Shown here: positions 1 through 45,948 of the stretch, piece after piece
Position numbering within the stretch: position 1 is the stretch's first letter
Layout of the letters: each line of letters opens with the position of its first letter
Virus record (IMG/VR): IMGVR_UViG_3300035703_002708
Strand: one strand, 5' to 3'
Source: a virus
Lineage: Duplodnaviria; Caudoviricetes
DNA length: 64,000 bases
The notes under the pieces: generated by a model
The model's input: only the letters and a program-made list of their open reading frames with translations
Told to the model about the DNA's origin: nothing
The model's database searches: none
Made by a program: the position numbers and the translations under genes

Positions 1-228
1 TTTAATGTTGGTGCTGTTCAAGCCGTGATGGAATTTGATAACGGACACTCTATCTCCGTTGTTGGTGGTGGTCAAGGTCTATACGGTAATGGAGTGTCAA
101 CATTTGAGGCTTGGGCTTCTTGGCAAGACGATGTTCAAGGATGGTTATCTAAAGATGAGGTAACTGAACTTATGTTAGAAACTCAATCAAAACCTAAACA
201 CGTTCCTGTTATTGGATTCAATGGTTAA
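1..228 (+). CDS. Hypothetical protein, probably 5'-truncated by the window edge
   Basis: The frame is open from base 1 (FNVGAVQAVMEF...) to TAA at 228; it overlaps the next gene region as in an operon. Confidence 0.6.
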   Translation, partial: FNVGAVQAVMEFDNGHSISVVGGGQGLYGNGVSTFEAWASWQDDVQGWLSKDEVTELMLETQSKPKHVPVIGFNG

Positions 229-232
229 TATT

Positions 233-595
233 ATGAAAGTAATTATAGCAGGAAGTAGAACATTTGATGATTACCATTATCTTAGTATAATGTGTGACCG
301 TATTTTTGGAATCAAAGATGATATTGAAATTGTAAGTGGTGGTGCAAAAGGTGCCGATAGTTTGGGAGAAAGGTATGCAAGAGAACGAAACCTACCACTT
401 ACAATTTTTCCCGCTGAGTGGGATAAATACGGTAAGTCAGCGGGTTATAAAAGAAACTCACAAATGGCTGATTACTCTCATATGTTAATTGCATTTTGGG
501 ATGGAAAAAGTAAAGGGACTCAACATATGATTAACCTTGCGGAAAAAAAAGGATTGATGGTTGAAGTTTATAACCCTTTTGAAATAGATTATTAG
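233..595 (+). CDS. SLOG/YspA-like (DUF2493-type) nucleotide-binding protein
   Basis: Motifs MKVIIAGSR, IVSGGAKGAD, AEWDKYGKSAGYKRN and AFWDGKSKGT are typical of the phage SLOG family. The start was moved to the ATG at 233. Confidence 0.8.
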   Translation: MKVIIAGSRTFDDYHYLSIMCDRIFGIKDDIEIVSGGAKGADSLGERYARERNLPLTIFPAEWDKYGKSAGYKRNSQMADYSHMLIAFWDGKSKGTQHMINLAEKKGLMVEVYNPFEIDY

Positions 596-616
596 TTTTT
601 TTTTGTAAAAATTTAC

Positions 617-624
617 TATATTTG
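617..624 (+). promoter_or_regulatory. Bacteroidota-type -7 promoter element (TATATTTG), 4 nt before ATG 629
   Basis: Matches TAnnTTTG; no clear -33 TTG at 19-20 nt. Confidence 0.55.
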
Positions 625-628
625 TAGA

Positions 629-1045
629 ATGAAAACTTACTTGTTTTTGGACGATTTCAGAAATCCTATGGACTGCATAAATTATATGCGTTTGAGGGTT
701 GATGATTCAGCTATGTATAGTCGTGAAAAGTGGATTGTAGTAAGAAACTATGATGAGTTTGTGAATTACATAACAAATAACGGATTACCATATTTAATTT
801 CTTTTGACCACGACTTGGCAGATGAACATTACGACCCATCTATGTATAGTGGGAATTATGATGATGTTGCTAAAAACTTTAAAGAAAAAACAGGTATGGA
901 TTGTGCTAAATGGTTAGTTGATTATTGTTTAGATAACGAAAAACAATTACCAAAATTTGTTGTTCATTCTATGAATCCTGCGGGAACTAAAAACATCTCC
1001 TCATTATTAAATGACTTTAAAAAGTTTCAAAATTTTGAGATTTAA
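629..1045 (+). CDS. Cyclic-phosphate-processing receiver-domain protein
   Basis: LFLDDFRNP...WIVVRNYDEF...ISFDHDL...TGMDCAKWL...VHSMNPAG pattern of stand-alone phage receiver-like domains linked to RNA repair. Confidence 0.75.
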   Translation: MKTYLFLDDFRNPMDCINYMRLRVDDSAMYSREKWIVVRNYDEFVNYITNNGLPYLISFDHDLADEHYDPSMYSGNYDDVAKNFKEKTGMDCAKWLVDYCLDNEKQLPKFVVHSMNPAGTKNISSLLNDFKKFQNFEI

Positions 1046-1100
1046 TTTGTCAGAATCAGAAATGTTTGTTAATTTTGTCCAACTCTTAAAAATAAACCCT

Positions 1101-1235
1101 ATGAAAACTTTCTTTTTTAAATCAAATCCGAATGAACTTTCAACTTTGGCAATACTTATCCAGATGGGAATATTTGCAACCGTTGGGCTAGGGTCCATAA
1201 TCGCAATATTTGAGTTTATCGCACATGTTAGATAA
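1101..1235 (+). CDS. Small membrane protein
   Basis: ATG at 1101 within the listed ORF, one hydrophobic segment, and an upstream TTG(1047-1049)-N20-TAATTTTG(1070-1077) promoter-like motif. Confidence 0.45.
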   Translation: MKTFFFKSNPNELSTLAILIQMGIFATVGLGSIIAIFEFIAHVR

Positions 1236-1509
1236 AATTTTCAAATACATCTTTTTGACGGGGATTATCTTCACGTTTTTTGTAACTGCACAAACCTGTT
1301 CAAGACCGATAACTCATAATAGAACTTTATATCAAACTGATGTCGTTGTAGTTCATTTTGACTTAACAAGAGATACGGTAAGAAGAGTTGTCTTTTTTGA
1401 TTACTTACAAATTGACCATATGGATAATCTCGTCAAAAAAGATGGATTTGTTGTTGCCACCAAAGTAAAAAAATACAAATATTTAAATTCAGTAAAAAAA
1501 TCTTTATGA
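1210..1509 (+). CDS. Hypothetical protein with N-terminal hydrophobic segment
   Basis: The ORF fills the gap in the operon and overlaps the next start by 4 nt; the true start may be ATG 1225. Confidence 0.55.
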   Translation: MSLSHMLDKIFKYIFLTGIIFTFFVTAQTCSRPITHNRTLYQTDVVVVHFDLTRDTVRRVVFFDYLQIDHMDNLVKKDGFVVATKVKKYKYLNSVKKSL

Positions 1510-2168
1510 GTGTTTTGAAGCTTGATAGTTCATCCAAGATTTGGATAACATCAGACACCCATTACGGACACAAAAACATTTGTCGTGGCGTCACAGATTG
1601 GCGTCTACCTGATGGTTCTATACCCGTAGACCAAACAAGAGATTTTTTGAGTGTGGAAAAAATGAACTCGGCAATTCTTAACAACATCAATGAGGTTGTT
1701 GGTCAGGATGATATTTTGATACATCTTGGTGATTGGTCCTTTGGTGGGTTTGAGAACATTCGTAAATTTTGGGACCAAATAGTATGTAAGAACATTCATC
1801 TTGTTTTGGGCAACCACGACCACCATATTGAACGAAACAGAGATGGTTCACAGGGGTTGTTTAAAAGTGTAAGTGACTATTTGGAACTTACTGTACCTGA
1901 TGTTGCAAAATTCGTATTGATGCACTATCCACTTTCTTCTTGGAATGGTTTGAACAAAGGAGTAATCCACCTTCACGGTCACGTTCACCTACCAAATGAT
2001 AAAAAATTTGGTAAAGGTAAAAAGATGGATGTTGGTATGGATGGTTCAGAAGAATTTCGTCCTTACAACTTAATTCGTGAGATTGTTCCAATTATGAGAA
2101 AGCGTGAAGTAATGTCTGATATGGAATTTGACCACCATACAGATGAAATCAAAGGAATAGTAGGATAA
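1506..2168 (+). CDS. Calcineurin-like metallophosphoesterase
   Basis: Motifs TSDTHYGH, HLGD, LGNHD, HYP and HLHGHVH. Confidence 0.9.
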   Translation: MSVLKLDSSSKIWITSDTHYGHKNICRGVTDWRLPDGSIPVDQTRDFLSVEKMNSAILNNINEVVGQDDILIHLGDWSFGGFENIRKFWDQIVCKNIHLVLGNHDHHIERNRDGSQGLFKSVSDYLELTVPDVAKFVLMHYPLSSWNGLNKGVIHLHGHVHLPNDKKFGKGKKMDVGMDGSEEFRPYNLIREIVPIMRKREVMSDMEFDHHTDEIKGIVG

Positions 2169-2173
2169 TAATT

Positions 2174-2296
2174 ATGGGTAAAACTTATCGTAATACAAAA
2201 AACGATTCGCCAAAACAAAAAAACAAAGGGAATCAAAGTAAAAACAAATCTTCCAATAAAAAAAATAACAAAAATAAGGGATTTGATGATGAATAA
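2174..2296 (+). CDS. 40-aa Lys/Asn-rich small protein (MGKTYRNTKNDSPKQKNKGNQSKNKSSNKKNNKNKGFDDE), not in the ORF track
   Basis: Translated by hand; it exactly fills the gap between the phosphoesterase and methyltransferase genes. Confidence 0.5.
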   Translation: MGKTYRNTKNDSPKQKNKGNQSKNKSSNKKNNKNKGFDDE

Positions 2297-2309
2297 TAAA
2301 ATACAAAAA

Positions 2310-2909
2310 ATGGACAATACTTTTTTTTTAAATCAGAGTATGGTCTTCACGGAGCGCAGTCTATATTTCATTCATAATAATGAGGATAGTGTAGTAATGG
2401 ATATTTGTGAAGATTCTTTGATGAAAAGAACCGCCGAACTTTTAATAATGGAGGGTGACGATGTCTTAGAAATAGGTTTCGGTATGGGAATATTTTCTGA
2501 TTATGTACAAAGTAAAAACATCAAAACTCACGTAATTGTGGAAAGTCATCCAGAAGTTTTCGAGAAATTGGTGTCATGGTCTGAAAATAAAACAAATGTC
2601 AATCCAATTTTTGGGGATTGGATAGATGTTTTACCTGAAATATTATCTCGTCAATATGATAGTGTTTATTTTGACACACATTATGATTTCAATACAATGT
2701 TTTTTTTAAAAAAAATACAAAATAATATTAAAAAAAATGGAAGATACTCAAGGTACACTTTAGACTCAAATGACACTTCCGCATTTAGTCAAGAAACACA
2801 CGGAACAGGGTTTAAGGTTCTGTATCAAGAAGAACACCAGATAGAAGTTAACAAATGTAAAAACGATACTTCTCCATTTTCCATTCCAATATGTATACTT
2901 TCCAAGTAA
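2310..2909 (+). CDS. Class I SAM-dependent methyltransferase, GAMT/Rmt2-like
   Basis: VLEIGFGMGI motif I, HVIVESHPEV, and YDSVYFDT; likely start at ATG 2310. Confidence 0.7.
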   Translation: MDNTFFLNQSMVFTERSLYFIHNNEDSVVMDICEDSLMKRTAELLIMEGDDVLEIGFGMGIFSDYVQSKNIKTHVIVESHPEVFEKLVSWSENKTNVNPIFGDWIDVLPEILSRQYDSVYFDTHYDFNTMFFLKKIQNNIKKNGRYSRYTLDSNDTSAFSQETHGTGFKVLYQEEHQIEVNKCKNDTSPFSIPICILSK

Positions 2910-2975
2910 AATACTAATTTTTTAAAAATATTTAAATTTAATCGGTATTTCAGATAATTTTTGTATATTTGTCAA

Positions 2976-4037
2976 ATGTTAGAAACCTTAGAGAAATATC
3001 ATAATGAGGGGTTACTTTATAAACAAGTACACCCCTCTTTACCTCTAACCATATGGAACTACACTGAAAAGGTTCAATATGAAGGGTTATGGGATGATAT
3101 TACTCTAATGTCAAGAGGATTAGTGACCGACGATAAAGGAAATGTAGTTGCGAGACCATTTAAAAAATTCTTCAATTTAGAGGAATCAAAACATACTCCG
3201 ACTGAAAAGTTTGATGTATATGAAAAGATGGATGGGTCTTTGGGAATATTCTTTTATTATAATGGTGGTTGGGTAATGGCGACTAGGGGTTCATTTACTT
3301 CTGACCAAGCGGTGAAGGGTTATGAAATGATGTTTAAATATGATTTTGCATCACTACATAAGGACTACACTTATCTATTTGAAATCATATACAAAACAAA
3401 CCGAATAGTGGTTGACTATGATTTTGAAGATGTGGTTTTGTTAGGTATGATAAATACCAAGTCAGGTTATGAGGTTGATTTATATAGTGGGTCCGTGGAT
3501 GTTAGATTAAAAAATCTGATAAACAATTTAGGTTTCAAAGTCGTAAAAAAATATGATGGAATAAACGATTATAATACCTTAAAATCTATGGTGAGAGATA
3601 ACGAAGAGGGTTTTGTTGTTCGTTTTTCCAACGGAGATAAAATGAAAATCAAAGGTGAGGAATATTTGAGATTACATAAAATAATGACTCAAGTATCTAC
3701 CACTTCTATATGGGAAGTATTAAGTAACGGTGATGATATAGATGTATTGTTAAAAGATGTTCCTGATGAGTTTTATAACAAGGTAAAAACTTATGTTGGT
3801 AAATTAAAATATGCACATTATCAAATATCTGAATACTGTGGTAAGTATCACGATAGTTATAGATATGGGAAATATAATGATAAAGAGGTGGAACCAACCA
3901 AAAAGGAGTTTGCTGAGTTTGTTCAGAAAAATTTTGATAAAAAAGAACTCCACGCCGTTATGTTCGCCATGTGGGATAAAAAAGATTATTCTTCCATAAT
4001 ATGGAAATTAATAAAACCAAAATATGAAAAACTTTAG
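2976..4037 (+). CDS. T4 Rnl1-like RNA ligase
   Basis: Motif I YEKMDGSLG, RGLV...ARPFKKFFN, LFEII and EGFVVRF; ATG 2976 follows TATATTTG (2964-2971) by 4 nt. Confidence 0.85.
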   Translation: MLETLEKYHNEGLLYKQVHPSLPLTIWNYTEKVQYEGLWDDITLMSRGLVTDDKGNVVARPFKKFFNLEESKHTPTEKFDVYEKMDGSLGIFFYYNGGWVMATRGSFTSDQAVKGYEMMFKYDFASLHKDYTYLFEIIYKTNRIVVDYDFEDVVLLGMINTKSGYEVDLYSGSVDVRLKNLINNLGFKVVKKYDGINDYNTLKSMVRDNEEGFVVRFSNGDKMKIKGEEYLRLHKIMTQVSTTSIWEVLSNGDDIDVLLKDVPDEFYNKVKTYVGKLKYAHYQISEYCGKYHDSYRYGKYNDKEVEPTKKEFAEFVQKNFDKKELHAVMFAMWDKKDYSSIIWKLIKPKYEKL

Positions 4038-4350
4038 AATTTTAATTTTGGGTTTGGTTGTAAGTTTGGGTCTTTGTGTAAAAACAAAGGCTCAAACTTT
4101 TCGCTATTCAAACAAACCTAAAAACGGACCTATAATGTTGGTGGGGGGTATTACTTTAATTACCGCCTCGGTATTGGAAAATAATGCTCAAGGGGATTGG
4201 GTATATAGTTATTCACCGAAAACAAACTCATTCACTAAAGAATATGTAAGACCAAACATTTTCAAAAATACACCTGTCAATATAATTTTTGGAGTTGGTG
4301 TTACTTTAACCGCGACAGGATTAATTTCTTCGTTGATGTCAATCAAGTAA
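4024..4350 (+). CDS. Membrane/secreted hypothetical protein
   Basis: Signal-peptide-like N-terminus ending KAQ (Gln after the predicted cleavage site) and two further hydrophobic segments. Confidence 0.6.
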   Translation: MKNFRILILGLVVSLGLCVKTKAQTFRYSNKPKNGPIMLVGGITLITASVLENNAQGDWVYSYSPKTNSFTKEYVRPNIFKNTPVNIIFGVGVTLTATGLISSLMSIK

Positions 4351-5178
4351 TTTTTCGTTGATGTCGTAAAACCTACCTGTCTCAACCCACCTCAAAACTT
4401 GATAATTTGTTCCGGTCGCACTAAACCTACTCGGTTCAAAATCCTCAACTTTATTTATAAAACATTTATCCCAATTTTGTTTAGGAATTGAACTGGTTGC
4501 AATATCTTCAGAACTATATTTTCTTTCCATCGCAAATAACACAGGAAATTCCGATGTAAATTTTATGTCATCAACCTCATTCATCTGTGATAAGAATCCT
4601 TCAATAACAGATTCCAAATTTAAGTCATAAGCAATATAAGTGGTAACGAGTATTTCAGGAACCTCTTGAATATCCTCAACCTCACCATCTCCATCACATC
4701 TATGACAATTGTATTCTCCATCACCACCACAATTATCACATCCTAAATATCCCTCACCATCACAATACTCGCATTCTTCTTGTTCGGTATTTCCCTCATC
4801 ATCTTCTACATCAACTTTTCCATCACCACCACATTCATTACAACTTTCACTACCACTACCTCCACAGTAATCACAACTTTCGGTACCACCACCACCGCAA
4901 TAACCACACTCTACCATACCAGGTTCTTTACCGAAACAAATCATATCAAATGTGTAAAGGTTATTATTAATTGACCAATCAACTGTTTTTTTCTCAACAT
5001 TTCTTAACACCGCATCCAAATAAAAAGTTAATTTTATTGTTACTTCCAAAGGAAAATTTTGTGTAAATTGTTGGAAGGTTTTATTTGTTTTAATATAAAT
5101 GAAAAGTTGATTTAAATTCGTATAAGAACCCTCAGGTATCAATCTTGATAATCTTTTGGCGATGTTGTATAAATCCAT
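4339..5178 (-). CDS. Protein with DnaJ-type CxxCxGxG zinc-finger repeats and no J-domain
   Basis: Six repeats: CGYCGGGG, CDYCGGSG, CNECGGDG, CEYCDGEG, CDNCGGDG and CHRCDGDG; no HPD motif. Confidence 0.8.
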   Translation of the reverse strand: MDLYNIAKRLSRLIPEGSYTNLNQLFIYIKTNKTFQQFTQNFPLEVTIKLTFYLDAVLRNVEKKTVDWSINNNLYTFDMICFGKEPGMVECGYCGGGGTESCDYCGGSGSESCNECGGDGKVDVEDDEGNTEQEECEYCDGEGYLGCDNCGGDGEYNCHRCDGDGEVEDIQEVPEILVTTYIAYDLNLESVIEGFLSQMNEVDDIKFTSEFPVLFAMERKYSSEDIATSSIPKQNWDKCFINKVEDFEPSRFSATGTNYQVLRWVETGRFYDINEKLLD

Positions 5179-5200
5179 ATAATTTTTTCTTACATATAAG

Positions 5201-5214
5201 TATTTATATAAATA
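5201..5214. promoter_or_regulatory. Overlapping, bidirectional TATTTAT late-promoter-like motifs
   Basis: TATTTATA at 5201-5208 (+) and ATAAATA at 5208-5214 (TATTTAT on -), between the divergent starts at 5178 and 5223. Confidence 0.55.
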
Positions 5215-5222
5215 AAAAAGTT

Positions 5223-5831
5223 ATGAGCACATTTCAAAAACCATCGACAGGGAGTATTACAAAAAAAGACAACAATGTATTAGAATTTTCTAGTTTCAAG
5301 TTGGATAATATCAATTCTCCATTTGCTGGTGTTGTGACGGATGTATCACAAACAGATTGTGGAGGTAAAGTAAAGTTGAAGCATGTTTTCAATGGTAATA
5401 CTTTATATTCTAAATTCTGTAACGTCTCAACAATTTTGGTATCTAGGGGTGAAAATGTCAACGGTGGTGAAAAAATTGGAAAGTTCGGGGACAAACCTGT
5501 TGAGTATGTTTTGAGTGATGGAGGTAAAAACCTAAATCCTAAAGATTTTTTTGGTGAAGTTGAATCAAAAAAAACCGAGACTAACAAAGAAAGAACTTCT
5601 AAAAGTAGTGATTATAGAACAGAAAAGAAAAGAGGTTTGACCGTACCGCAAGAAATCGCAATAGATGCTATTAGTTTACCTTTGAAGATGGGTAAGGATT
5701 TCGCCAAGGGGTTAATCAGTAAACCGTGGCAAATGTTAAAAGATTTACCATCTAACATTTTACCAAAAAAAGAGGGGTTTGAAAGAGACCTCAACGAGGA
5801 AATAGAAAGAATAAAATCTTTATTAAAATAA
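5223..5831 (+). CDS. M23-peptidase-like protein, apparently catalytically degenerate
   Basis: SPFAGVV...GGKVKLKH...YSKFCNV...VSRGENVNGGEKIG matches the M23 fold, but the HxxxD and HxH zinc ligands are not seen; likely start at ATG 5223. Confidence 0.6.
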   Translation: MSTFQKPSTGSITKKDNNVLEFSSFKLDNINSPFAGVVTDVSQTDCGGKVKLKHVFNGNTLYSKFCNVSTILVSRGENVNGGEKIGKFGDKPVEYVLSDGGKNLNPKDFFGEVESKKTETNKERTSKSSDYRTEKKRGLTVPQEIAIDAISLPLKMGKDFAKGLISKPWQMLKDLPSNILPKKEGFERDLNEEIERIKSLLK

Positions 5832-6675: not shown

Positions 6676-6750
6676 GGCGGGGTAGACTGGAGAAGGCACC
6701 AGCTGAGTCTCATAAGCTCAACCACGCAGGTTCGATTCCTGCTCCCGCAA
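6676..6750 (+). tRNA. tRNA with CAT anticodon (Met; initiator versus elongator/Ile2 identity unresolved), CCA not encoded
   Basis: Acceptor GGCGGGG/TCCCGCA, D-arm CTGG/CCAG, anticodon arm TGAGT-CTCATAA-GCTCA, T-arm GCAGG-TTCGATT-CCTGC; followed by CTA rather than CCA. Confidence 0.9.
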
Positions 6751-7097
6751 CTAGTGACCCGTTTACGGTGGAATCGGATGAAGCCACCTAATTTTTCGGG
6801 ATGACGAAAAAAAACAAAAAAAAGAATGTGTCCGGGGGAGTTTTGTTTAATATTTAGGCTCTTGTTATGTGTTTCACACCCCTCACCCGTGAAATCAGAA
6901 AAAAAAGACCACCTTTTATAGTGTGTGCGTAGATGTGATAACCACACCTTTCGTTTGAGGTTCATCAAAACGAATAAAAAATGGGCTTAGTCACCCATTT
7001 AACACATCCGTCGAGTGGTCGAACGATTCGAGTTAATTGCTCACTACAATTAAACTTGGGTTTATTGGAAACCTAACCACAAAACCAATAGCCAAAT

Positions 7098-7153: not shown

Positions 7154-7186
7154 AAAAAAACCCCATTCCGAAAAGGAATGAGGTTT
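7154..7186 (-). terminator. Intrinsic terminator downstream of the tmRNA
   Basis: CCCCATTCC-GAAAA-GGAATGAGG hairpin with an A7 run on + (U-tract on -). Confidence 0.7.
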
Positions 7187-7190
7187 CAGA

Positions 7191-7561
7191 TGGTGGAGAT
7201 GCGGGGTGCTGCCCCCCGGTCTTGCTCACTTTGGTAATTAAGGACTACGTAAATAGGTCAACATTAGTTCTTAATGTTCCGAAATATTGATTTTCTTACT
7301 CAGAAAACCACAAACGAGTTTTGTTTCTTTTAGGATAGAAACCACACCCTACCAGTACTTCTGTTCCGAGGTTATATGTACGCCGACCCGAAGTAGTTTC
7401 GCCTTAGGCTACTGCTACAGTTTCAGAAGTACGAACAAGTCCTACAGCTGAAAGTTTGTTGATAACGTTTCCGTCTAATTGTTAAGTCAGTTTTACAAGG
7501 TTAACTCAGCCTCGTTACGCCCTTAATTAGCAACCGTGCCAATCGATGCTATGTCATCCCC
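7191..7561 (-). ncRNA. ssrA: tmRNA (one-piece, 371 nt), predicted tag (A)GNVINKLSAVGLVRTSETVAVA*
   Basis: 5' GGGGATG pairs with 3' CATCTCC-A-CCA including G3.U70; internal tag ORF 7472-7404 preceded by the UAGAC resume context; promoter TTG-N19-TATATTTG at 7618-7589 (-). Confidence 0.93.
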
Positions 7562-7648
7562 ATTATGTTAAAGAACTTCTTTCTTCTACAAATATACGAA
7601 CCTTTTTGGAAAAACCAAAAAGAATAAATATTTATCAATAAAAAATTT

Positions 7649-8983
7649 ATGACAAGTGAAGACCTCGATGAAGGAAGGAATGTTATTATCGAAAACGATG
7701 ATTACCTTTTCATGGAAATATTAAATGCCGAAACTGCAAGATACTATGGTAAAGATGATATTGCTTACCTTTGGGGAAGAAAATATAGAGAGGGTCATTT
7801 ATATTATTTGATTGATAAAAAATTCAGGGGAGATTCAATTTGGATTCATATTCCTCGTATGAGTTCTATAGAAATAGAAACCTTCGACGAGGAAGTTCTT
7901 ACTTTATCTGACCTATTGAGAAGACATTCATTTATTGAAAAATTCATTATGGATAAAGTCAATCCATTTGATATGAGCACTTATTATGCTTTGAAAGCGA
8001 TTGCTCAAGGGGTTCCACCTTTAAGTGATTGGTCAATGCAAAATGTTGATGACCTTATTAGTAATTTCAAATATATCAAAGGAAATCCAAGAAATTCTAT
8101 TGTAACTTTAAGATTTGATAATAATGAGGAATATTTTAGAACATTCGATGTTAGTGATGATACTGTTTGGTTTCTGAATAGAATTTTTAACTCTTATGAA
8201 GGTGGCTATGAATTTGTTGATTACTCTGACAATTATCAATGGACCGATGGTTACATTCTTACTTACAATTTGAATGACGAAAATAAAGAAAAAGTTAATG
8301 AAATATTAAAAGTATTAAAACCTGGTACCACTCTAACAGATAATGACCACGATAATGCGGAGTTAACTAAAATACTTGACAATTTCTACCCTGAAATTGG
8401 TGATGATTTAACTACTGAATATGCTCATTTAGAAAACCAAGCAAGAAACGAAAAAGCGAAGGAAGAAATAACTGATGAATTTTGTAACATATACGAAAAA
8501 TTTAATATATTCGTGAGAAGAGGTTGTTTTTGGGAATATACAACTCCTGTTTGGAATTTAGTTAGGTTATACGAATCAAAACAATTATTCAATACAGATT
8601 TATTGGGACTAATCTCTGCTATAGGTCATACATTAAGTGTGACCGATTGGTATGAATATATGTATGAAATTTATGGTGATAATTTTGATGACGAACAATT
8701 TAACAGAGAAGCCGCAAGGACCTTGGATAAAGTCATAGAAAAGTTAGAAGAACAAAATTTGGATAAAGTAAAAAAGGTTTACAATGAAATTTCCAAAAAA
8801 TTCAAGTTTGAAAGATGGTATGATTTTCCGGTTGACCCCAAGAAAAGTTTTTATATGAGAAAAATAGATTTGGAAACAGGAAAATTGGATGTTAATTTGA
8901 GAGGCGTCGGTATCAACAGTTACCGAACTTTGATGGAACTCGAGGATTTTTATAACCTGATTTATAATTATTCTTTGTTTTAA
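7649..8983 (+). CDS. Hypothetical protein (444 aa)
   Basis: Long ORF with TATTTAT motif at 7629-7635; no recognisable motif. Confidence 0.8.
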   Translation: MTSEDLDEGRNVIIENDDYLFMEILNAETARYYGKDDIAYLWGRKYREGHLYYLIDKKFRGDSIWIHIPRMSSIEIETFDEEVLTLSDLLRRHSFIEKFIMDKVNPFDMSTYYALKAIAQGVPPLSDWSMQNVDDLISNFKYIKGNPRNSIVTLRFDNNEEYFRTFDVSDDTVWFLNRIFNSYEGGYEFVDYSDNYQWTDGYILTYNLNDENKEKVNEILKVLKPGTTLTDNDHDNAELTKILDNFYPEIGDDLTTEYAHLENQARNEKAKEEITDEFCNIYEKFNIFVRRGCFWEYTTPVWNLVRLYESKQLFNTDLLGLISAIGHTLSVTDWYEYMYEIYGDNFDDEQFNREAARTLDKVIEKLEEQNLDKVKKVYNEISKKFKFERWYDFPVDPKKSFYMRKIDLETGKLDVNLRGVGINSYRTLMELEDFYNLIYNYSLF

Positions 8984-8985
8984 TT

Positions 8986-9015
8986 TTGTTTTGTTAAAAA
9001 CTTTTGATAGATTTG
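8986..9015 (+). promoter_or_regulatory. Bacteroidota-type promoter, leaderless geometry
   Basis: TTG(8986-8988)-N19-TAGATTTG(9008-9015)-N4-ATG(9020). Confidence 0.7.
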
Positions 9016-9019
9016 TCCT

Positions 9020-9853
9020 ATGGAAAGAAATTATCAATTACTGAAGGACGTTTTGTCCGTACCATCTAAAACCTACAATGAGGAACTGATGGTTGAATTC
9101 ATCTCAAATTGGCTTACCGAAAATAACATTGACCACGAAGTTGATGAATATATGAATGTATATGCCACCAAAACAACGGGTCCTGTTCCTGATAATTTTT
9201 ATTTTCCTTGTGTTGTATCTCACACTGATACTGTTCACAACATCGATACAATAAATGTGGTCGAAGAACAAAAACCGAATGCTCAAGGTGAAATCAAACT
9301 TTCCCTTAAAGCATACAACGATTTAGGTAATCCTACGGGAATTGGTGGTGATGATAAGTGTGGTATTTACGCTTGTTTAGAATTACTAAAGGAGTTGCCA
9401 TTTTTGAAAGCGGCGTTTTTCGTTTCAGAAGAAACTGGTTGTCACGGGTCTAGAAAAGCGGACAGGTCTTTTTTCTCTGATGTGGGATATGCGATTCAAT
9501 TCGATGCCCCTGAAAATTGGATGGTAACTGAAAGATGTTGGGGTACGACTTTGTTTGACCGTAGGTCTGATTTTTTCAAGCACTGTGATAATGTGTTGAC
9601 TGAATCTTTTCCTGATAAATTACAATATTTTTCACATCCATACACTGACGTTTACGCACTAAAGGAATCATTTGACTTTTCTTGTATAAACATTTCAATC
9701 GGGTATTATGATTACCACACCAAAAACGAATATGTCGTCGTAGAAGATGTTTATAACGGAATTGATGTAGGAAAGAAAATGATTGAAAAATTAGGTTATT
9801 CTAAATACAAATTCAAAACTGAAAAACCTGATAAGTTTTATTCGGTGTTTTAG
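9020..9853 (+). CDS. M20/M28-clan zinc metallopeptidase
   Basis: Motifs SHTDTV, GGDDKCG, SEETG, IQFD and YHT. Confidence 0.8.
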   Translation: MERNYQLLKDVLSVPSKTYNEELMVEFISNWLTENNIDHEVDEYMNVYATKTTGPVPDNFYFPCVVSHTDTVHNIDTINVVEEQKPNAQGEIKLSLKAYNDLGNPTGIGGDDKCGIYACLELLKELPFLKAAFFVSEETGCHGSRKADRSFFSDVGYAIQFDAPENWMVTERCWGTTLFDRRSDFFKHCDNVLTESFPDKLQYFSHPYTDVYALKESFDFSCINISIGYYDYHTKNEYVVVEDVYNGIDVGKKMIEKLGYSKYKFKTEKPDKFYSVF

Positions 9854-9897
9854 TTTTAGTTAAATAAGTTTTTTTATTAAGTTTTATATTTATCAAT

Positions 9898-10446
9898 ATG
9901 AAACTGATAAATTTACTGACTCGGATAATATCTGAGCAACCCGCTTTTCAAAAAAGACTACTTATAAAAGGTCTAGTTTTAAGTGAAATTTTCGATGGTA
10001 ATATATTCGAATTATATACAGGTCAGCATGGGGTAGACCGAGCCATAAGAGAAGAAAATACATCTGAAGTTACCAAATATGACATTATTGATAAATTTAC
10101 AAGGGCAATACCTGAATTGAATAAAAGATTTTTCGGTATGATAAGAAATGCTAAAAGTCCAATTATTGATGGTAAATATTTTTTCAGGGACTTCAAATCA
10201 GGTGGTCCGAGAGAAGAAAAATCTCCAAGGTTTGTAGTTGTAGAACAAAAAGATGATTTTTTTCAAATGGTACTTATGGTTAAGAACTACGACAAAAATA
10301 GTAATTACATATCGTTTGAGATAGTCACTATTTTGAAAAGTGGTGAACCCCTATATAATTTATATAATCCTAAACATCACGTTCTCAAGTATAATATTTT
10401 TTTAGAACATGTTGGTGTTTCAGAAATAATTCATATATTTGTGTAA
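9898..10446 (+). CDS. Hypothetical late protein
   Basis: TATTTAT at 9887-9893; N-terminus MKLINLLTRIISE. Confidence 0.7.
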   Translation: MKLINLLTRIISEQPAFQKRLLIKGLVLSEIFDGNIFELYTGQHGVDRAIREENTSEVTKYDIIDKFTRAIPELNKRFFGMIRNAKSPIIDGKYFFRDFKSGGPREEKSPRFVVVEQKDDFFQMVLMVKNYDKNSNYISFEIVTILKSGEPLYNLYNPKHHVLKYNIFLEHVGVSEIIHIFV

Positions 10447-10565
10447 GAAAATCCGAAGGTCGTTGAGGATTAAAATATAAAGCGACTGGGTGGGGAAAGT
10501 TATGTGTCAGCTTCCACCGAGTAATAACACTTCTGAACCAAACAAAATTTGGTCAGGCAGAAAGG

Positions 10566-10593
10566 AAAAGGAGGTCATTCGACCTCCTTTTTT
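10566..10593. terminator. Bidirectional intrinsic terminator overlapping the clp stop codon
   Basis: AAAAGGAGGTC-ATTC-GACCTCCTTTT perfect 11-bp stem. Confidence 0.8.
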
Positions 10594-12614
10594 GATTTAC
10601 CCTTCTTTGGTTTTTTATCTTCTGTAATTTTAACTTGTTCTTCTTCAACAGATATAGTATAGTTGTGGTCGGTGAGTAATTCACCTTTGAGGACTTCTTC
10701 TGAAATGTAATCTTCAATCTTGTCCTGAATCGCTCTTTTCAAAGGACGGGCACCATACATCTCGTCAAATCCAACTTTAGAAATCATATCAACAATTGAG
10801 TCGTCAAATTTGACGTTGTACTTAATTTTGGTCAATCTATCTGTCAACTTAATAAGTTCAATTTTAACAATTTCTTTTACGTGTTCTTCTTTCAAAGTGT
10901 TGAATACAATGATATCATCGATACGGTTCAAGAACTCAGGTGCAAAAAATTTCTGAAGTTCTTTTTTCAGAGTATCTCGTTTTTGTTCCTCAACGATATA
11001 ATCCTTTTTCTGAAAACCGATACCCGAACCAAATTCTTGGACTTTTTTAACACCAAGATTTGATGTCATAATAATCAAACAATTTTTGAAGTTAATTTTA
11101 CGACCCAAACTATCAGTTAGGTGTCCATCATCCAATACTTGAAGTAATGTTGAAAACACATCTTTATTTGCTTTTTCAATTTCGTCAAACAAAACAACTG
11201 AATATGGTTTATTTTTAACTTGTTCAGTGAGTTGTCCCCCCTCATCATAACCCACATATCCTGGAGGTGCCCCAATCAAACGAGACACGGTATGTTTTTC
11301 TTGATATTCGGACATATCAATTCTGATTAGTGAATCTTCACTACCAAAAATTTCTTTCGCCAATTGTTTTGCTAAATGTGTTTTACCAACACCTGTTGAA
11401 CCCAAGAAGATAAACGAACCAATTGGTCTATTAGGGTCTTTGATACCCAATCTATTTCTACGAATTGCTTTCGAGATTTTACTTACCGCTTCCGATTGAC
11501 CAATAACTTTTGATTCCAACATCGACTCCAAATTAATAAGAGATTTTGTGTCATCAACATTTAATTTACCAACAGGAATTTTGGTCATATTTGAAACAAC
11601 CTCATAAACAAGTTCGATTTGAACATCTTTTTTGTTGATATTCATTTCTTCTTCAAATCTTTGTTTTTCAGCATGGAGTCGGTTTAATACTTTTTTCTCC
11701 TTATCTCGTAATTCCGCCGCTTGTTCATAGTTTTGTCTTTTAACAACATCTATCTTCATTTGTTTTATATCAGAGGCCTCCTGTTTTAACTTTTCAATAG
11801 ACTCTGGCATTTTAACATCTACCTGACTTCTTGCACCTACTTCATCTATAATATCAAAAGCTTTGTCAGGAAACTCTCTATCTGTAATATATCTGTCTGC
11901 TAAATCAACACAAGTAATTAATACTTCATCCGAGAAAATTACTTTGTGATAATCCTCATATTTTGATTTGGAGTTTCTTAAAATTTGTAAAGTTTCATCT
12001 TTCGTTGCTGGGTCAACAATCACTTTTTGAAATCTGCGTTCAAGTGCTCCGTCTTTTTCAAAGTTTTTTCTATACTCATCTAATGTTGTCGCTCCAATAC
12101 ACTGAATTTCTCCTCTTGCAAGTGCGGGTTTGAATATGTTTGAAGCGTCTAAAGAACCTGAAGAATTACCAGCACCTACGATTGTATGGATTTCATCAAT
12201 AAAGACAATAATGTTTGGATGAGATTGTAATTCCTCGATTATCACTTTCATTCTTTCCTCAAACTGACCACGATATTTTGTTCCCGCAACAATCGATGTC
12301 ATATCAAGTAATACAATCCTTTTATCAACCAAATTTCTTGGACATTCACCTTGTTGGATTTTCATTGCCAATCCTTCAACAATTGCGGTTTTACCACAAC
12401 CTGGCTCACCAATAATAATTGGGTTATTTTTCTTTCTTCTTGATAGAATTTGAGCAATTCTCAATATTTCTTTATCTCTACCAATTACAGGGTCTAATTT
12501 ACCTTCTTCGGCATACTTAATCAAATCTTTTGAGAAGTTATCTAATACAGGTGTTCCTGTTTCACTTTCTATTTTCTTTTTGTGTGATGGTCCATCATCC
12601 ATTATCTCGTTCAT
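10575..12614 (-). CDS. clpC: ClpC-type AAA+ Clp protease ATPase lacking the N-terminal Clp-repeat domain
   Basis: Walker A GEPGCGKT and GSTGVGKT, Walker B IDEIH and FDEIEK, GYVGY pore loop, UVR-like middle domain (QNYEQAAELRD), and the ClpP-docking IGF loop. Confidence 0.9.
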   Translation of the reverse strand: MNEIMDDGPSHKKKIESETGTPVLDNFSKDLIKYAEEGKLDPVIGRDKEILRIAQILSRRKKNNPIIIGEPGCGKTAIVEGLAMKIQQGECPRNLVDKRIVLLDMTSIVAGTKYRGQFEERMKVIIEELQSHPNIIVFIDEIHTIVGAGNSSGSLDASNIFKPALARGEIQCIGATTLDEYRKNFEKDGALERRFQKVIVDPATKDETLQILRNSKSKYEDYHKVIFSDEVLITCVDLADRYITDREFPDKAFDIIDEVGARSQVDVKMPESIEKLKQEASDIKQMKIDVVKRQNYEQAAELRDKEKKVLNRLHAEKQRFEEEMNINKKDVQIELVYEVVSNMTKIPVGKLNVDDTKSLINLESMLESKVIGQSEAVSKISKAIRRNRLGIKDPNRPIGSFIFLGSTGVGKTHLAKQLAKEIFGSEDSLIRIDMSEYQEKHTVSRLIGAPPGYVGYDEGGQLTEQVKNKPYSVVLFDEIEKANKDVFSTLLQVLDDGHLTDSLGRKINFKNCLIIMTSNLGVKKVQEFGSGIGFQKKDYIVEEQKRDTLKKELQKFFAPEFLNRIDDIIVFNTLKEEHVKEIVKIELIKLTDRLTKIKYNVKFDDSIVDMISKVGFDEMYGARPLKRAIQDKIEDYISEEVLKGELLTDHNYTISVEEEQVKITEDKKPKKGKSKKEVE

Positions 12615-12664
12615 AGTATTTAAATTTTGTAAAAATATAGGAATTGAATTTATAAATTCAACAG

Positions 12665-12737
12665 TGTCAGTTTGTCACACATAGTATGACATTTTGTCAG
12701 TTCATGTCAGTTTTTTTGGTTTGGCACAAAGTTGGCT
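12665..12737. promoter_or_regulatory. TGTCA repeat array plus sigma54-like promoter upstream of hsp20
   Basis: TGTCAGTT at 12665, 12695 and 12705, TGTCA at 12673, inverted TGACA at 12687; TGGCACAAAGTTGGCT at 12722-12737 has GG-N10-GC spacing. Confidence 0.5.
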
Positions 12738-12774
12738 CACCAAGTAAAAAATAAACTTATAAATTATAAAAACT

Positions 12775-13155
12775 ATGTTTAACACAATTTCTTTATTCAG
12801 TCCAACATTTGATGATTTAACAAAGGACTTTTTTGAATCAACGAGGAAGAATTATTATTCGACCGATTATGAAACCCACAAAACTGAGGATGGTATGTAT
12901 TATTTATTTGATGTACCAGGTTTTAACAAATCAAATCTAAAAGTTGAGGTGGAAGGTTCGAAACTTTTGATTGATGGTAAAAGAATTTATAAAACATCAA
13001 ATGGTGAAAGAACAAAGACATTCCAAAAAACTTATGAGTTGGGAAATAAAATTGACATCTCAAAACTTGAGGCAACAATCGAGGATGGAATTTTGACAAT
13101 CTTTATTCCTACTCCAAGTGAAAAGGAAACAAAGAAAAAAATCTCTCTTCTTTAA
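12775..13155 (+). CDS. Hsp20/alpha-crystallin small heat-shock protein
   Basis: FDVPGFNKSNLKVEV...LLIDG...ATIEDGILTIFIP. Confidence 0.9.
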   Translation: MFNTISLFSPTFDDLTKDFFESTRKNYYSTDYETHKTEDGMYYLFDVPGFNKSNLKVEVEGSKLLIDGKRIYKTSNGERTKTFQKTYELGNKIDISKLEATIEDGILTIFIPTPSEKETKKKISLL

Positions 13156-13164: not shown

Positions 13165-13195
13165 AAAAACCCCTCCCAAAAAGAGGGGTCTTTTT
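13165..13195 (+). terminator. Intrinsic terminator
   Basis: ACCCCTC-CCAAAAA-GAGGGGT followed by a T-run. Confidence 0.75.
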
Positions 13196-15018: not shown

Positions 15019-17019
15019 GTGATGGAAAACAATGGTATTTTAAAAAGTTTTGATTTACAGGATGATTTGAATCCAAAAATTTGGAAAAAAAACTCAAAAG
15101 GGTCCTATACATTATCACCAGAAGTTAGAGAAAAACTTTTGGAAATTGCATACGAATTTATTGAATCATTAAAAGTAGATGTAATAGTATCAGATGTTCA
15201 TCTTACTGGTTCACTCGTCAACTTTAATTGGTCTCAGTATTCGGATTTTGATTTACATATCATAGCTGATTTTAATCAGTTTCCAAAAAAAAGTTTACCT
15301 CTTTACGAAGAGTTATTTAAACTTAAAAAAACCATATTTAATTCTGAACAGAATATTAAAATATACGGATACGATGTCGAGGTCTTTGTTCAGGATGAAA
15401 ATGAAAAAGGTCATTCTGCAGGTATCTTTTCTTTAATTTCGAATGATTGGTTAGAAAAACCAAAAAAAGAAAAATTTGAGGTAAATAAAACGATTCTTAA
15501 AAAGAAAATAGACCAATGGACTGAAAAAATAGATAAGGTCCTTGAGTCGGCACAAGAGGAGAAAGATTTAGAAAAATCTAAAAAATTAGTTAGTAACCTT
15601 AAAGAAAAACTCAAGGATTATAGAAAAATTGGACTAGAAAAAGGAGGAGAGATGTCTTACGAAAACCTTGTATTCAAATACTTGAGAAGAAGTGGACATA
15701 TAGAAAAATTGTTCGACTTCAAAAAAGACAGATTGAATAAGGAACTTTCATTGAATGAGGTTACTACAACTATTGGTGGTACTTTTAAGACTGACCTTGA
15801 GAATGGTCCTAAAAATCATGGAGCAAGAGCGTTCGGTAATTGGCAATCTGATAATGCTTGGGATATTTTTTCACCTCCTGGTACTAATGTAAATTCTTAC
15901 ACTAATGGAACTGTTTCAAGAGTTTACGATACTGGTAAAAATTCAGGAAAGGTTTATGGTACTCAAGTAACAGTATCAGGTGAAAAGGGTTTTCCTGATA
16001 TTTTTTACACTCATTTAAAAAATGTCAATTTGAAAAAAGGAGACAAAGTCAAAGTTGGTGATTATATTGGTCAAATTTCTGAATGGATTGGACATAAAGG
16101 AATGGAACATGTTCATATTGGTCTACCTCGAGGTAACCATTTAAGAAGTTTATTAGTTAACACTGAGAAAATTTTTTCAGGAAAAGGACCTATAAATCAA
16201 CCAGGTTCTAATACAGAAACTGATAGTGGTTATATTGGTTCCTTATTGACACAAGCAGATAAGTCCAAGTTTCTAAAAGATTTTATGGAGTTGGCGAAAA
16301 ATGATGTCAATTACAAATATGACTTAAGTAATAAAGGAAGGATACAATATCAACCAGAAGTTGAGAAAATTCAGGTTGCGCTGAAGTTTTTAGGATATGA
16401 CTTACCAAAGTGGGGTATCGATGGGAAGTTCGGACCCGAAACTGAATCCGCGGTAAAAGAATTACAAAAAAAATATAATTTGGGTGAAACAGGTGTAGTT
16501 ACTAAAATAGTTTTACAATATCTTTTCGTTCTTATAATCCAAAATGGATTTGAGCAAGCCGACCTAAGTAAAATACTGTCCCTAAAAGACGAAGGTTTTA
16601 CTAGTCCAAGCGTGTCTAACGATAAAGAATTTTACGAACAAATTTTGAAAGGTATCAATGCACCAATTACGGACGGTAATCTTAAGTTCCTTTATGCATG
16701 GAGACAAGCAGAAGGTGGTAAGGCAACTAACAATCCTTTTAACACCACTTTAAATTTAAAAAAAGACAATCTAAAGTCTAACTATAACAGTGTTGGTGTA
16801 AAAAACTTTTCAAACTCATCGTATGGTGTTGAAGCAACAGTAAAAACATTATTGAATGGGTATTATGATTGTATTGTTGATGGTTTGCGAAACGATATAG
16901 GTGCGGAAAGAATTAGTAAAATGTGTATGAGTCAATTGGAAAAGTGGGGTACTGGAGGATTAGTTTATAAAGTATTACAAGGTGGGACTATAAAACCACC
17001 CCCTATTTATGAAGCATAA
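15019..17019 (+). CDS. Fusion: Pol-beta-type nucleotidyltransferase + M23 peptidase + peptidoglycan-binding domain + lysozyme-like domain
   Basis: LTGSL...SDFDLH...DVEV (NTase); AWDIF...YTHL...HVH (M23); IQVAL..LGY...GIDGKFGPET..AVKELQ (PG-binding); AWRQAEGG..TNNPFNTT (lysozyme-like). Confidence 0.75.
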   Translation: MMENNGILKSFDLQDDLNPKIWKKNSKGSYTLSPEVREKLLEIAYEFIESLKVDVIVSDVHLTGSLVNFNWSQYSDFDLHIIADFNQFPKKSLPLYEELFKLKKTIFNSEQNIKIYGYDVEVFVQDENEKGHSAGIFSLISNDWLEKPKKEKFEVNKTILKKKIDQWTEKIDKVLESAQEEKDLEKSKKLVSNLKEKLKDYRKIGLEKGGEMSYENLVFKYLRRSGHIEKLFDFKKDRLNKELSLNEVTTTIGGTFKTDLENGPKNHGARAFGNWQSDNAWDIFSPPGTNVNSYTNGTVSRVYDTGKNSGKVYGTQVTVSGEKGFPDIFYTHLKNVNLKKGDKVKVGDYIGQISEWIGHKGMEHVHIGLPRGNHLRSLLVNTEKIFSGKGPINQPGSNTETDSGYIGSLLTQADKSKFLKDFMELAKNDVNYKYDLSNKGRIQYQPEVEKIQVALKFLGYDLPKWGIDGKFGPETESAVKELQKKYNLGETGVVTKIVLQYLFVLIIQNGFEQADLSKILSLKDEGFTSPSVSNDKEFYEQILKGINAPITDGNLKFLYAWRQAEGGKATNNPFNTTLNLKKDNLKSNYNSVGVKNFSNSSYGVEATVKTLLNGYYDCIVDGLRNDIGAERISKMCMSQLEKWGTGGLVYKVLQGGTIKPPPIYEA

Positions 17020-18436
17020 TATTATGAAATCAGATTTATTAATTTTAAAAGAGGTAAAATTAAATTCTCCTTTAGATGGGGAATTGAACGTTACTAGCCC
17101 ATTCGGAAAATGGAGAGGTACTTATCAGCATCATGGTGTCGATATAGGAACACCATCCGGTAGTCAACTAAAAAGTCCTGCTGATGGTATTATAACGGTC
17201 GCTCACACTAAACAAAATGCTTGTGGGGGTACAATTACTATTGACCACAAAAATGGATTCAAAAGTCGTTTTTGTCATTTGAAAAGGATTGATGTTACTG
17301 TTGGTGACAAAGTTACCGCAGGACAGACAATTGCATTAACAGGTGGTGGTGCAAATGACCCAGGAAAAGGAAGGTCAACAGGTCCGCATTTACATTTCGA
17401 ATTCTATGAAAATGGGAGATTGGTAGACCCTATGAATTTTATTGATAAAGTAATATCACCTGGCGATTTCAAAGATTCCGAAAAACAAAGTGATATTTCT
17501 AATGAATTAATAACTAAAGCACAAAAATCTGATTTTTTAAAGAAGTTAAAAGATTTGGCCGAAAAGAATATCACATTTAAAAATTTAAAAAGTGAGGGTT
17601 CCAAAATACCATATAGAAAGGAGGTAGAAAATATTCAAATTGCACTACAATTTTTGAAACATTCTTTACCTGTATGGGGTGTTGATGGTTTATTTGGTCC
17701 TGAAACTGCAAACGCTGTTAAAGGATTTCAAAAAAAAATGAACCTTAAAGACACAGGTGAGGTTGACTCTGAAACTATGAAATATTTATACGCCTCTTTG
17801 GTTAAAAATAATTTTGAGGATTCTGATTTGAGTAAAATTAATTTTACAGGAGGATATAATTCGAACTTGTTGGATGTATCACCAAATTCGGTTTCATCTG
17901 ATTTTGAAACTATGACTAAAATAATAATAGATAATTTTGAGGGTGGTTATTATAATCCTGCATGGCATTATAAACCCGCAATGGGTCGTTCTGGTGAAAC
18001 AATGTTTGGAATGGATAGAGTGCACGGTGCAGGGTTGTTTAAATCGGGACCAGGTAAAATGTTTTGGGAAATTATTGATAAGAACAAATCAAAAGAAGTT
18101 TGGAAACATTATTATACGGGTGGACCAATAAAAGATGATTTGATTAAGTTAGTCGCAATGATTATGGAGGAGGCTTATAATGTAAATTCTAACACGTATT
18201 TATCACCTACTGCTCGTAAAATAGTAAACTCAAATAATGGTTTGATGTTTCATTTTTTATACGCATGTTGGAACGGTCCAGGTTTTTTCAAAAGATTTGC
18301 TAACATAATAAATAAGGCGGTTGAGGACGGTATCGAATCTCCACAAAAACTTCTGAGTATTGCAATAAATTCAAGATTGGATGGAGGAGTAACAAGAAAA
18401 AGCGGAGAAAAAATGTTGAAAATATTCAAAGCATAA
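17009..18436 (+). CDS. M23 peptidase + peptidoglycan-binding domain + GH108-like muramidase
   Basis: HHGVD, FCHL and TGPHLHFE (M23); GVDGLFGPET (PG-binding); FEGGYYNP...GETMFG (GH108-like). Confidence 0.8.
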   Translation: MKHNIMKSDLLILKEVKLNSPLDGELNVTSPFGKWRGTYQHHGVDIGTPSGSQLKSPADGIITVAHTKQNACGGTITIDHKNGFKSRFCHLKRIDVTVGDKVTAGQTIALTGGGANDPGKGRSTGPHLHFEFYENGRLVDPMNFIDKVISPGDFKDSEKQSDISNELITKAQKSDFLKKLKDLAEKNITFKNLKSEGSKIPYRKEVENIQIALQFLKHSLPVWGVDGLFGPETANAVKGFQKKMNLKDTGEVDSETMKYLYASLVKNNFEDSDLSKINFTGGYNSNLLDVSPNSVSSDFETMTKIIIDNFEGGYYNPAWHYKPAMGRSGETMFGMDRVHGAGLFKSGPGKMFWEIIDKNKSKEVWKHYYTGGPIKDDLIKLVAMIMEEAYNVNSNTYLSPTARKIVNSNNGLMFHFLYACWNGPGFFKRFANIINKAVEDGIESPQKLLSIAINSRLDGGVTRKSGEKMLKIFKA

Positions 18437-24079: not shown

Positions 24080-24140
24080 TATTTATTTAGAACTACAAAA
24101 CTATTGTTTATCTATTTATAGTTGTAGTTAATTTTATTCT

Positions 24141-25958: not shown

Positions 25959-25982
25959 TATTTATTATAAAATATTTGCAAA

Positions 25983-26708: not shown

Positions 26709-26777
26709 TTTTTTGACATTATGACAATCTTTATCTAACTTTTTTTCAGAAAAATAAACTCTGAAAAAAGTGAGAGA

Positions 26778-45947: not shown

Positions 45948-45948
45948 A

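Follow-up and report, generated by a model that had tools for sequence, protein, structure and literature searches.

A tmRNA with a long tag, an N-domain-less ClpC and an exopeptidase-like protein encoded together in a family of T4-like jumbo phages

The described systems that come closest to the locus presented here are bacterial trans-translation (tmRNA-SmpB, ClpXP/ClpAP and SspB), the ClpC unfoldases of Firmicutes and actinobacteria (Staphylococcus aureus, Bacillus subtilis and Mycobacterium tuberculosis ClpC1), the tmRNAs of huge phages, and the PepT tripeptidase and TET (M42) aminopeptidases. We analysed positions 7191-13155 of a 64,000-nucleotide (nt) stretch of viral DNA (IMG/VR record IMGVR_UViG_3300035703_002708; the whole stretch is called the window below), in which a sequence-only reading had seen a tmRNA gene, a gene for a ClpC without the N-terminal domain (N-domain), a peptidase gene and hsp20, and had proposed that together they give the phage its own circuit for ribosome rescue and protein degradation. 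As in the bacterial system, the tmRNA is of the one-piece type, with a G3:U70 pair and an internal tag frame closed by a stop codon; the tag ends in hydrophobic residues and alanine, and the phage tmRNA is accompanied by the gene for a Clp unfoldase that has a ClpP-docking loop. The phage system differs from the bacterial one in being viral, in mostly not encoding SmpB and ClpP, and in having a linked unfoldase of the ClpC type rather than ClpX or ClpA; in addition, its tags are 21-22 amino acids (aa) long, against 9 aa in candidate hosts, and have the ending V-x-(V/A)-A in place of A-(L/M)-A-A.

The unfoldase shares with cellular ClpC the D1 domain, a short UVR-type M-domain and a D2 domain with the ClpP loop, but its nearest cellular relatives, those of Bacteroidota, are only 56-58% identical. 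Like an engineered ClpC from which the N-terminal domain (NTD) has been removed (ΔN-ClpC; PMC12583610), it starts in the linker between NTD and D1; the phage truncation, however, is natural and evolutionarily fixed, and tyrosine stands in place of phenylalanine at the tip of the M-domain. The peptidase resembles PepT and the TET enzymes in its MH-clan catalytic fold and its candidate metal ligands (His/Asp/Glu-Glu/Asp/His), but it consists of the catalytic domain only (277 aa), without a lid, dimerisation or PDZ-like domain, and it scores below the Pfam cut-offs. Huge phages of more than 200 kb have been reported to carry tmRNAs, which were found with ARAGORN, and sometimes SmpB (Al-Shayeb et al. 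2020; PMC7162821), and two such genomes, LR756508 and LR756504, have both a tmRNA and a relative of the ClpC described here. The word 'Clp' does not occur in that paper (PMC7162821), whereas in the phages described here the tmRNA, whose tag is under selection at the peptide level, has a fixed place near an N-domain-less ClpC and an exopeptidase. A literature search on tmRNA, jumbo phage and Clp found no description of such a block, and a search by the phrase 'phage-encoded tmRNA' found no paper. The parts are of known kinds; what is new is that they occur in a fixed combination, that the long tag is under selection and that loss of the N-domain recurs.

In cells, the N-domain keeps ClpC in the resting state and serves as the binding site for adaptors and phospho-arginine. 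We tentatively read the phage locus as a conserved module in which ribosome rescue is coupled to protein breakdown, a reading to which we would give somewhat less than an even chance. The tmRNA would be transcribed from a host-type promoter, charged with alanine and, together with host SmpB, would release ribosomes that have stalled on mRNAs that are broken or lack a stop codon, appending a phage-specific tag of 21-22 aa to their products. The N-domain-less ClpC would assemble on host ClpP through an invariant [VI]GF loop, with no need of host adaptors, and would take up substrates through its pore, phage-tagged proteins being the most likely private substrate class; the adjacent exopeptidase would trim the released peptides to amino acids, and Hsp20, where present, would hold misfolded protein. 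The features of the interval are listed in Table 1.

Table 1. Features of the interval 7191-13155 and its border, with positions in the window
Feature	Position	Strand	Basis or remark
One-piece tmRNA gene	7191..7561	-	Rfam RF00023
Tag reading frame in tmRNA, GNVINKLSAVGLVRTSETVAVA + TAA	7404..7472	-	Read from resume codon GGA (7472)
TATATTTG, match to Bacteroidota-type -7 promoter element	7589..7596	-	27 nt upstream of tmRNA 5' end
Intrinsic-terminator-like hairpin	7157..7187	-	13-bp stem and T-run, directly after tmRNA
N-domain-less ClpC (linker, D1, short M-domain, D2 with GIGF loop)	10575..12614	-	Pfam and alignment with S. aureus ClpC
MH-clan dizinc exopeptidase-like protein, 277 aa, catalytic domain only	9020..9853	+	phrog_4191, fold
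Hsp20/alpha-crystallin	12775..13155	+	PF00011, 55.9 bits (gathering 20.8); phrog_432
Orphan 444-aa protein	7649..8983	+	Positionally conserved, fast-evolving
182-aa open reading frame without family	9898..10446	+	No Pfam, NCBIfam or PHROG match

A block fixed within one phage family

Open reading frames (ORFs) at 22304-31849 of the window match the T4-type large terminase, the gp20 portal and the gp23 major capsid protein, and the ORF at 27267-27995 matches the S77 prohead protease, ruling out a bacterial chromosome as the source of the DNA and bearing out the phage origin that had been assumed. From these structural genes, a G+C content of about 32%, a type IX secretion sorting domain on the ORF at 36421-37698 (minus strand) and the TAnnTTTG boxes described below, we conclude that the window belongs to a T4-like jumbo phage whose host is probably a member of the Bacteroidota. 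A 20 kb Logan contig carries the same stretch, and a megablast search with the 6.2 kb region gave no near-identical match among 50,697 phage records.

To describe the distribution of the genes we used two samples of 80 related IMG/VR contigs each, one chosen on ClpC and the other on the peptidase; counts out of 81 loci refer to the best 80 ClpC relatives and the window. The second sample came from a peptidase-profile scan of IMG/VR that was aimed at more distant phages but returned the same family, and it serves only as a second sample, selected independently of the first. Relatives of the ClpC are encoded on more than 599 IMG/VR contigs; the best 80 of them are 71-93% identical to it, on contigs of up to 321 kb; by peptidase matches, at least 545 viral contigs are related, complete genomes of about 290-320 kb among them. 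We found that the order of the locus is fixed: M23 peptidase, Hsp20 (where present), ClpC (+), peptidase (-), orphan ORF (-) and tmRNA (+). Specifically, the genes for ClpC and the peptidase are convergent neighbours in 79 of the 81 loci, and an M23 gene lies upstream of ClpC in 76. The tmRNA was found in 63 of the 81 loci by nhmmer and in one more (L063) by ARAGORN; the ClpC-chosen loci without it mostly end before the tmRNA position, and every locus that is not truncated has it. Among the peptidase-chosen loci with enough flanking sequence, ClpC is present in 75/75, the tmRNA in 61/61 and both in 56/56. The window's neighbouring genes for proteins of 182 aa, 246 aa and 255 aa and for a DnaJ-like protein, in contrast, occur in only one to four loci. 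Thus, the trio stays constant while its neighbours turn over, forming a strict core inside a variable region, and tmRNA, N-domain-less ClpC and exopeptidase are a fixed block in this phage family even if their functions should prove not to be coupled. The sequence-only reading had expected tmRNA and N-domain-less ClpC to occur together across related phages, and within this family they do.

Four megaphages of 0.48-0.64 Mb (LR745206.1, LR756502.1, LR756508.1 and LR756504.1) also encode an N-domain-less ClpC, with 44-59% identity, and all four encode one to three ClpP. Manual reading of the Rfam alignment gave tags of 25 and about 37 aa for the megaphage tmRNAs, unrelated in sequence. LR756508 has, in addition, a second match to the tmRNA model (112 nt, 58 bits) at 414804-414915.

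The tmRNA and its tag

The tmRNA gene of the window reaches 77 bits against the covariance model RF00023 (gathering score, 47) and covers the full model (1-374), which establishes the tmRNA that had been read from the letters. Its 7-bp acceptor stem, GGGGAUG/CAUCUCC, contains the alanine-identity pair G3:U70, and CCA is encoded. The pair is kept in 61 of the 62 relatives with a scorable stem, in at least 10 different stem sequences that are all fully paired. The T-loop is atypical in the window (GGCAGCA, as against TTCGAnT in most relatives), and the 3' CCA is not encoded in about half of the relatives. The sequence TAnnTTTG, which we take to be the Bacteroidota sigma-A -7 box, lies no more than 60 nt upstream of the tmRNA in 50 of 63 relatives, compared with about 6% expected from its density in the window. 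Over the whole window there are 129 such sites against 101 expected, an enrichment too small to be informative, so that only the fixed position upstream of the tmRNA counts. From the Rfam score, the retention of G3:U70 with compensatory changes in the stem, the promoter-like site and the terminator, we take the tmRNA to be functional; a mere attP-type fragment is ruled out by the full length, the promoter, the terminator and the selected tag.

ARAGORN did not detect this tmRNA in the window, and in the 82 sequences scanned it called only 12 of the roughly 64 tmRNAs of the phage family. Since the Rfam score is 77 bits and the program finds few tmRNAs in the relatives, its blank on the window reflects sensitivity and not absence, and surveys based on ARAGORN would undercount such phage tmRNAs several-fold. 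In two relatives the T-loop of the tmRNA is split by a group I intron (L065, 15071-15298, Rfam RF00028, 98.3 bits; L040, about 10647-10885), and about 240 nt further downstream the gene continues with the second half of the T-arm and the acceptor strand.

The tag of the window is 22 aa long and ends in T-V-A-V-A. ARAGORN assigns the same frame in relatives, and 59 of 64 tmRNAs have tags of 21-22 aa with the same pattern, G-N-[VT]-[ILF]-[NASD]-K-[LM]-x-x-Φ-G-L-Φ-[RK]-x-[ES]-E ... V-x-[VA]-A; on this comparative evidence, we consider the tag frame to be decoded. In an analysis of 48 distinct nucleotide versions, L12 was found to be encoded by CTT, TTA, TTG or CTA and R14 by CGT, CGC or AGA, and three codons each were found at Gly11 and at the final Ala. 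The use of several synonymous codons for invariant residues indicates that selection acts on the peptide and not on the RNA, and phage tmRNA tags can be not only long but also constant at the peptide level. Five Bacteroidota genomes have 9-aa tags (GENNFALAA, GDNNFALAA and GNTQYAMAA; a further call by ARAGORN is questionable), with which the phage tag, twice as long and with another ending, shares only the G-N/E start. Nor does the phage tag carry the C-terminal A-L/M-A-A of a canonical ssrA degron for ClpX or ClpA. A tag that is long, unlike host tags and conserved as a peptide implies a sequence-specific reader other than the host reader of ALAA.

Such a tag need not be a degron. It might mark or sequester truncated products, inhibit a host protease competitively or signal the translational state of the cell, with ClpC being unrelated to it, and this would be consistent with an internal motif that is better conserved than the extreme C-terminus and with the megaphage tags, which are also long but unrelated in sequence, suggesting that length itself may be a selected trait in phage tmRNAs. 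On the other hand, the final residue is Ala in 47 of the 48 distinct sequences, after a small hydrophobic stretch, as in known ssrA degrons, and no positive evidence points to an alternative reader, the orphan neighbour offering neither a fold nor a family lead. We therefore regard a tag without degron function as improbable.

The N-domain-less ClpC, its ClpP supply and the linked peptidase

The ClpC ORF encodes 679 aa with the Pfam domains AAA, AAA_lid_9, AAA_2 and ClpB_D2-small. It aligns in a single piece, M-domain included, with residues 155-802 of S. aureus ClpC (E 1e-217), whereas the alignment with ClpB falls into two pieces; the M-domain is short (half-length) and of the UVR type, and GIGF (residues 531-534) stands opposite the AGF loop of S. 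aureus ClpC. The ORF opens within the NTD-D1 linker, some 20 residues ahead of the 'TPVLD' motif of D1, with no upstream extension possible, and the N-terminal double Clp_N repeat domain was not found in it. Judged from these alignments, the protein is derived from ClpC but is not a canonical ClpC. Both traits that had been read from the letters, a start near D1 without Clp repeats and the retention of the UVR-like M-domain and IGF loop, are thus upheld.

The N-domain is missing in all 85 phage ClpCs (window, 80 relatives and four megaphages), and the longest upstream open frame among 84 phage homologues is 74 aa. In contrast, all 80 of the closest cellular homologues have an N-terminal extension, of at least 130 aa in 79 and of 90 aa in the remaining one, which a contig edge truncates. 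None of the 81 family members deviates in the two Walker A/B pairs, the two pore loops, the arginine-finger region or sensor-2, and FGxG[VI]GF is likewise invariant (G533 and F534, 100%), although the surrounding loop residues vary; in the M-domain, Q-x-Y-E-x-A-A-x-L-R-D is invariant or nearly so. The Bacteroidota genomes each have a ClpB and a full-length ClpC of 841-869 aa. In a quick maximum-likelihood tree, the phage family forms a long-stemmed clade whose place relative to Bacteroidota and other cellular ClpCs is not settled, and the ClpCs of LR745206 and LR756502 fall inside Bacteroidota ClpC, beside an N-domain-bearing Muribaculaceae protein. This placement suggests that the N-domain was probably lost at least twice, a provisional result of a quick tree with long branches. 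N-domain loss in ClpC would then be a repeated, phage-specific event. If the phage enzyme does read a private degron, this loss would be how phages made a closely controlled host unfoldase constitutively active and dependent on a degron.

Work on S. aureus shows what such a loss may do. Deletion of the NTD destabilises the resting state of ClpC, which then forms hexamers and binds ClpP without MecA; with intact F436 tips, the ΔN-ClpC rings join head-to-head into rods and proteolysis is blocked; and ΔN-ClpC-F436A, without an adaptor, degrades GFP-SsrA as well as the MecA-activated wild type does, since recognition of the SsrA degron falls to the pore rather than to the NTD (PMC12583610). By analogy, an adaptor-free, pore-driven phage ClpC that reads a degron is plausible.

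As the sequence-only reading had noted, the window holds neither clpP nor smpB; a tblastn search of the 64 kb with phage ClpP and SmpB queries found neither. Beyond the 64 kb we relied on four complete relatives of 290-321 kb, of which three lack ClpP and only one has SmpB. In five relatives (L030, L032, L035, L064 and L077), smpB adjoins the tmRNA, about 0.2-1.5 kb beyond it, and smpB also lies beside the tmRNA in L210 and L219; the window and most relatives have no smpB next to the tmRNA, and SmpB is presumed to come from the host. The invariant [VI]GF loop, together with the lack of clpP in three of the four complete relatives, implies that the ClpC of this family docks on host ClpP. This is the simplest reading, and the borrowing of host ClpP proposed earlier appears sound.

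A phage ClpC that works without ClpP could instead act as an unfoldase or disaggregase that, with Hsp20, maintains the solubility of virion proteins made in very large amounts, or could poison or re-programme host ClpC through mixed hexamers. The divergently adjacent hsp20 in the window and 20 relatives and the retained M-domain with its aromatic tip could be accounted for in this way, and mixed rings are conceivable, given the full-length ClpCs, 56-58% identical, of the candidate hosts; but an invariant [VI]GF within a variable loop, seen in 81/81 family members and the four megaphages, would not persist if no ClpP docked there, about three quarters of the relatives have no Hsp20, and all four megaphages pair their N-domain-less ClpC with ClpP genes. 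We judge action without ClpP to be quite unlikely.

The peptidase had been read as a member of the M28 clan. The exopeptidase-type fold of clan MH is confirmed, but the protein appears closer to M20 and M42 than to M28. Its Pfam scores are 19.4 bits for M42 and 20.0 bits for M20, both below the cut-off, and M28 is not among the hits. It matches phrog_4191 'peptidase' with 3e-34, and a structural model based on an alignment of 29 relatives (pLDDT, 89.6) gave Foldseek matches to PepT, TET/M42 and the DapE catalytic domain (probability 1.0; TM by query, 0.6-0.73). The invariant residues H68, D70, D111, E137, E138, D162 and H233 are candidate metal ligands or catalytic residues, to which individual roles can be given only provisionally. 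PepT and the TET (M42) aminopeptidases act downstream of ATP-dependent proteases. The phage peptidase was found in 79 of the 81 loci, with 47-85% identity.

Coupling of tag and ClpC, and the surrounding genes

The coupling of the phage tag to ClpC is plausible by analogy with the S. aureus enzyme; like the use of host ClpP and the role of the peptidase, it is inferred, whereas the genes themselves, their intactness, their strict joint inheritance and the selection on the tag peptide are shown by the sequences. Several observations weigh against it. In the tag, the penultimate residue is variable (V, A, G, T, I, K or E), and conservation is strongest in the interior, at K-[LM]-x-x-Φ-G-L-Φ-R, a motif more reminiscent of an adaptor-binding site than of a degron read by a pore. 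In ClpC, the tip of the M-domain, Y296 (corresponding to F436), is Tyr in 77 and Phe in 4 of the 81 sequences, and the kept aromatic residue suggests that the phage ClpC may need an activator. The co-occurrence is confined to one phage family and may be due to shared descent. Two of the four megaphages lack a tmRNA, and in the other two more than 200 kb separate it from ClpC; ClpC therefore has a role independent of tmRNA. Finally, the nearness of the tmRNA to an RNA-repair operon and a tRNA gene would fit a role purely in translation maintenance.

That operon, at 212-4037 of the window, is of the RNA healing-and-sealing kind, with genes for a YspA/SLOG protein, a cyclic-phosphate receiver (cREC), a calcineurin-like phosphoesterase (Metallophos), a methyltransferase and a T4 Rnl1-type ligase. 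A tRNA-Met(CAU) gene at 6676-6751 lies close to the tmRNA, and the three together form a translation-maintenance neighbourhood; homologues of Rnl1 or cREC are also found beyond the tmRNA in some relatives.

Because the link between ClpC and the tag is inferential, and in view of the megaphages, the internal tag motif and the RNA-repair neighbourhood, the main rival to coupling is that two functionally independent modules are inherited together. The tmRNA, alongside the nearby tRNA and RNA-repair genes, would top up ribosome rescue, for instance when host nucleases cleave mRNA and tRNA, and its tagged products would go to host proteases or another reader; ClpC, host ClpP and the exopeptidase would degrade other substrates, such as particular host factors or host proteins whose amino acids are to be recycled. 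This would agree not only with the RNA-repair genes and the megaphages, in which an N-domain-less ClpC has its own ClpP and the tmRNA is missing or unlinked, but also with the fast-evolving orphan gene that stands between the tmRNA and the convergent ClpC-peptidase pair, and huge-phage tmRNAs have already been described as general translation aids (PMC7162821). Extra rescue alone, however, leaves unexplained a tag that is long, unlike that of the host and constant in its amino acids, and independence does not account for three genes that always stay together amid changing neighbours. We consider two independent modules a serious possibility without thinking it probable.

If ribosome rescue and breakdown are coupled, the phages may possess an orthogonal degradation channel, composed of a private degron, an adaptor-free ClpC, host ClpP and a dedicated exopeptidase, with loss of the N-domain as the recurrent deregulating step; we put this forward with reserve, as possible rather than likely. 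Coupling would make the block the first viral tag-and-destroy circuit. It would also provide a parallel from nature to the engineered ΔN-ClpC, which escapes control by adaptors, and would show by what means a virus can release from regulation a protease whose unchecked activity is toxic. The tag and ClpC are candidate parts for an orthogonal degron system in Bacteroidota.

The sequence-only reading had counted Hsp20 as part of the module. The gene is indeed present in the window (Table 1), followed by a terminator at 13169-13189, but it occurs in only 21 of the 81 loci and is not part of the core. Within 12660-12736, about 40 nt upstream of hsp20, lies a sigma-54-like element, TGGCAC-N5-TTGGC, preceded by several TGTCAG/TGACA repeats; yGGCAy-N5-TTGa is similarly placed upstream of hsp20 in most relatives with that gene, and the 64 kb window contains two such sites against 0.06 expected.

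Two ORFs of the interval, those of 444 aa and 182 aa, had gone unmentioned in the sequence-only reading. The gene for the 444-aa orphan is present in 71 of the 81 loci, with 24-54% identity among relatives, and the protein has no Pfam, NCBIfam or PHROG match. Its model is multi-domain (pLDDT, 89.8), and comparisons with the PDB by Foldseek, with AFDB clusters, VIA-wide (best Z, 5.0) and by ESM Atlas features gave nothing convincing; a complex prediction with residues 1-350 of ClpC scored 0.00, which speaks neither for nor against binding. The 182-aa ORF is found in 2 of the 81 loci and, not being conserved, is probably outside the module.

Three M23 peptidase genes lie at 15019-18436 and 5145-5831 of the window, two of them with peptidoglycan-binding domains, and the N-terminal region of the 666-aa M23 protein matches phrog_36119. 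The ORF at 4339-5178 (minus strand) encodes a 279-aa protein with a weak match, below the cut-off, to the DnaJ-type CXXCXGXG zinc finger; this gene is present in only 4 of the 81 loci, the window's own contig included. At 44000-64000, about 25 genes run in the same direction on the minus strand, including one for a two-domain glycosyltransferase (57133-58629), and possibly represent a glycan or modification cluster.

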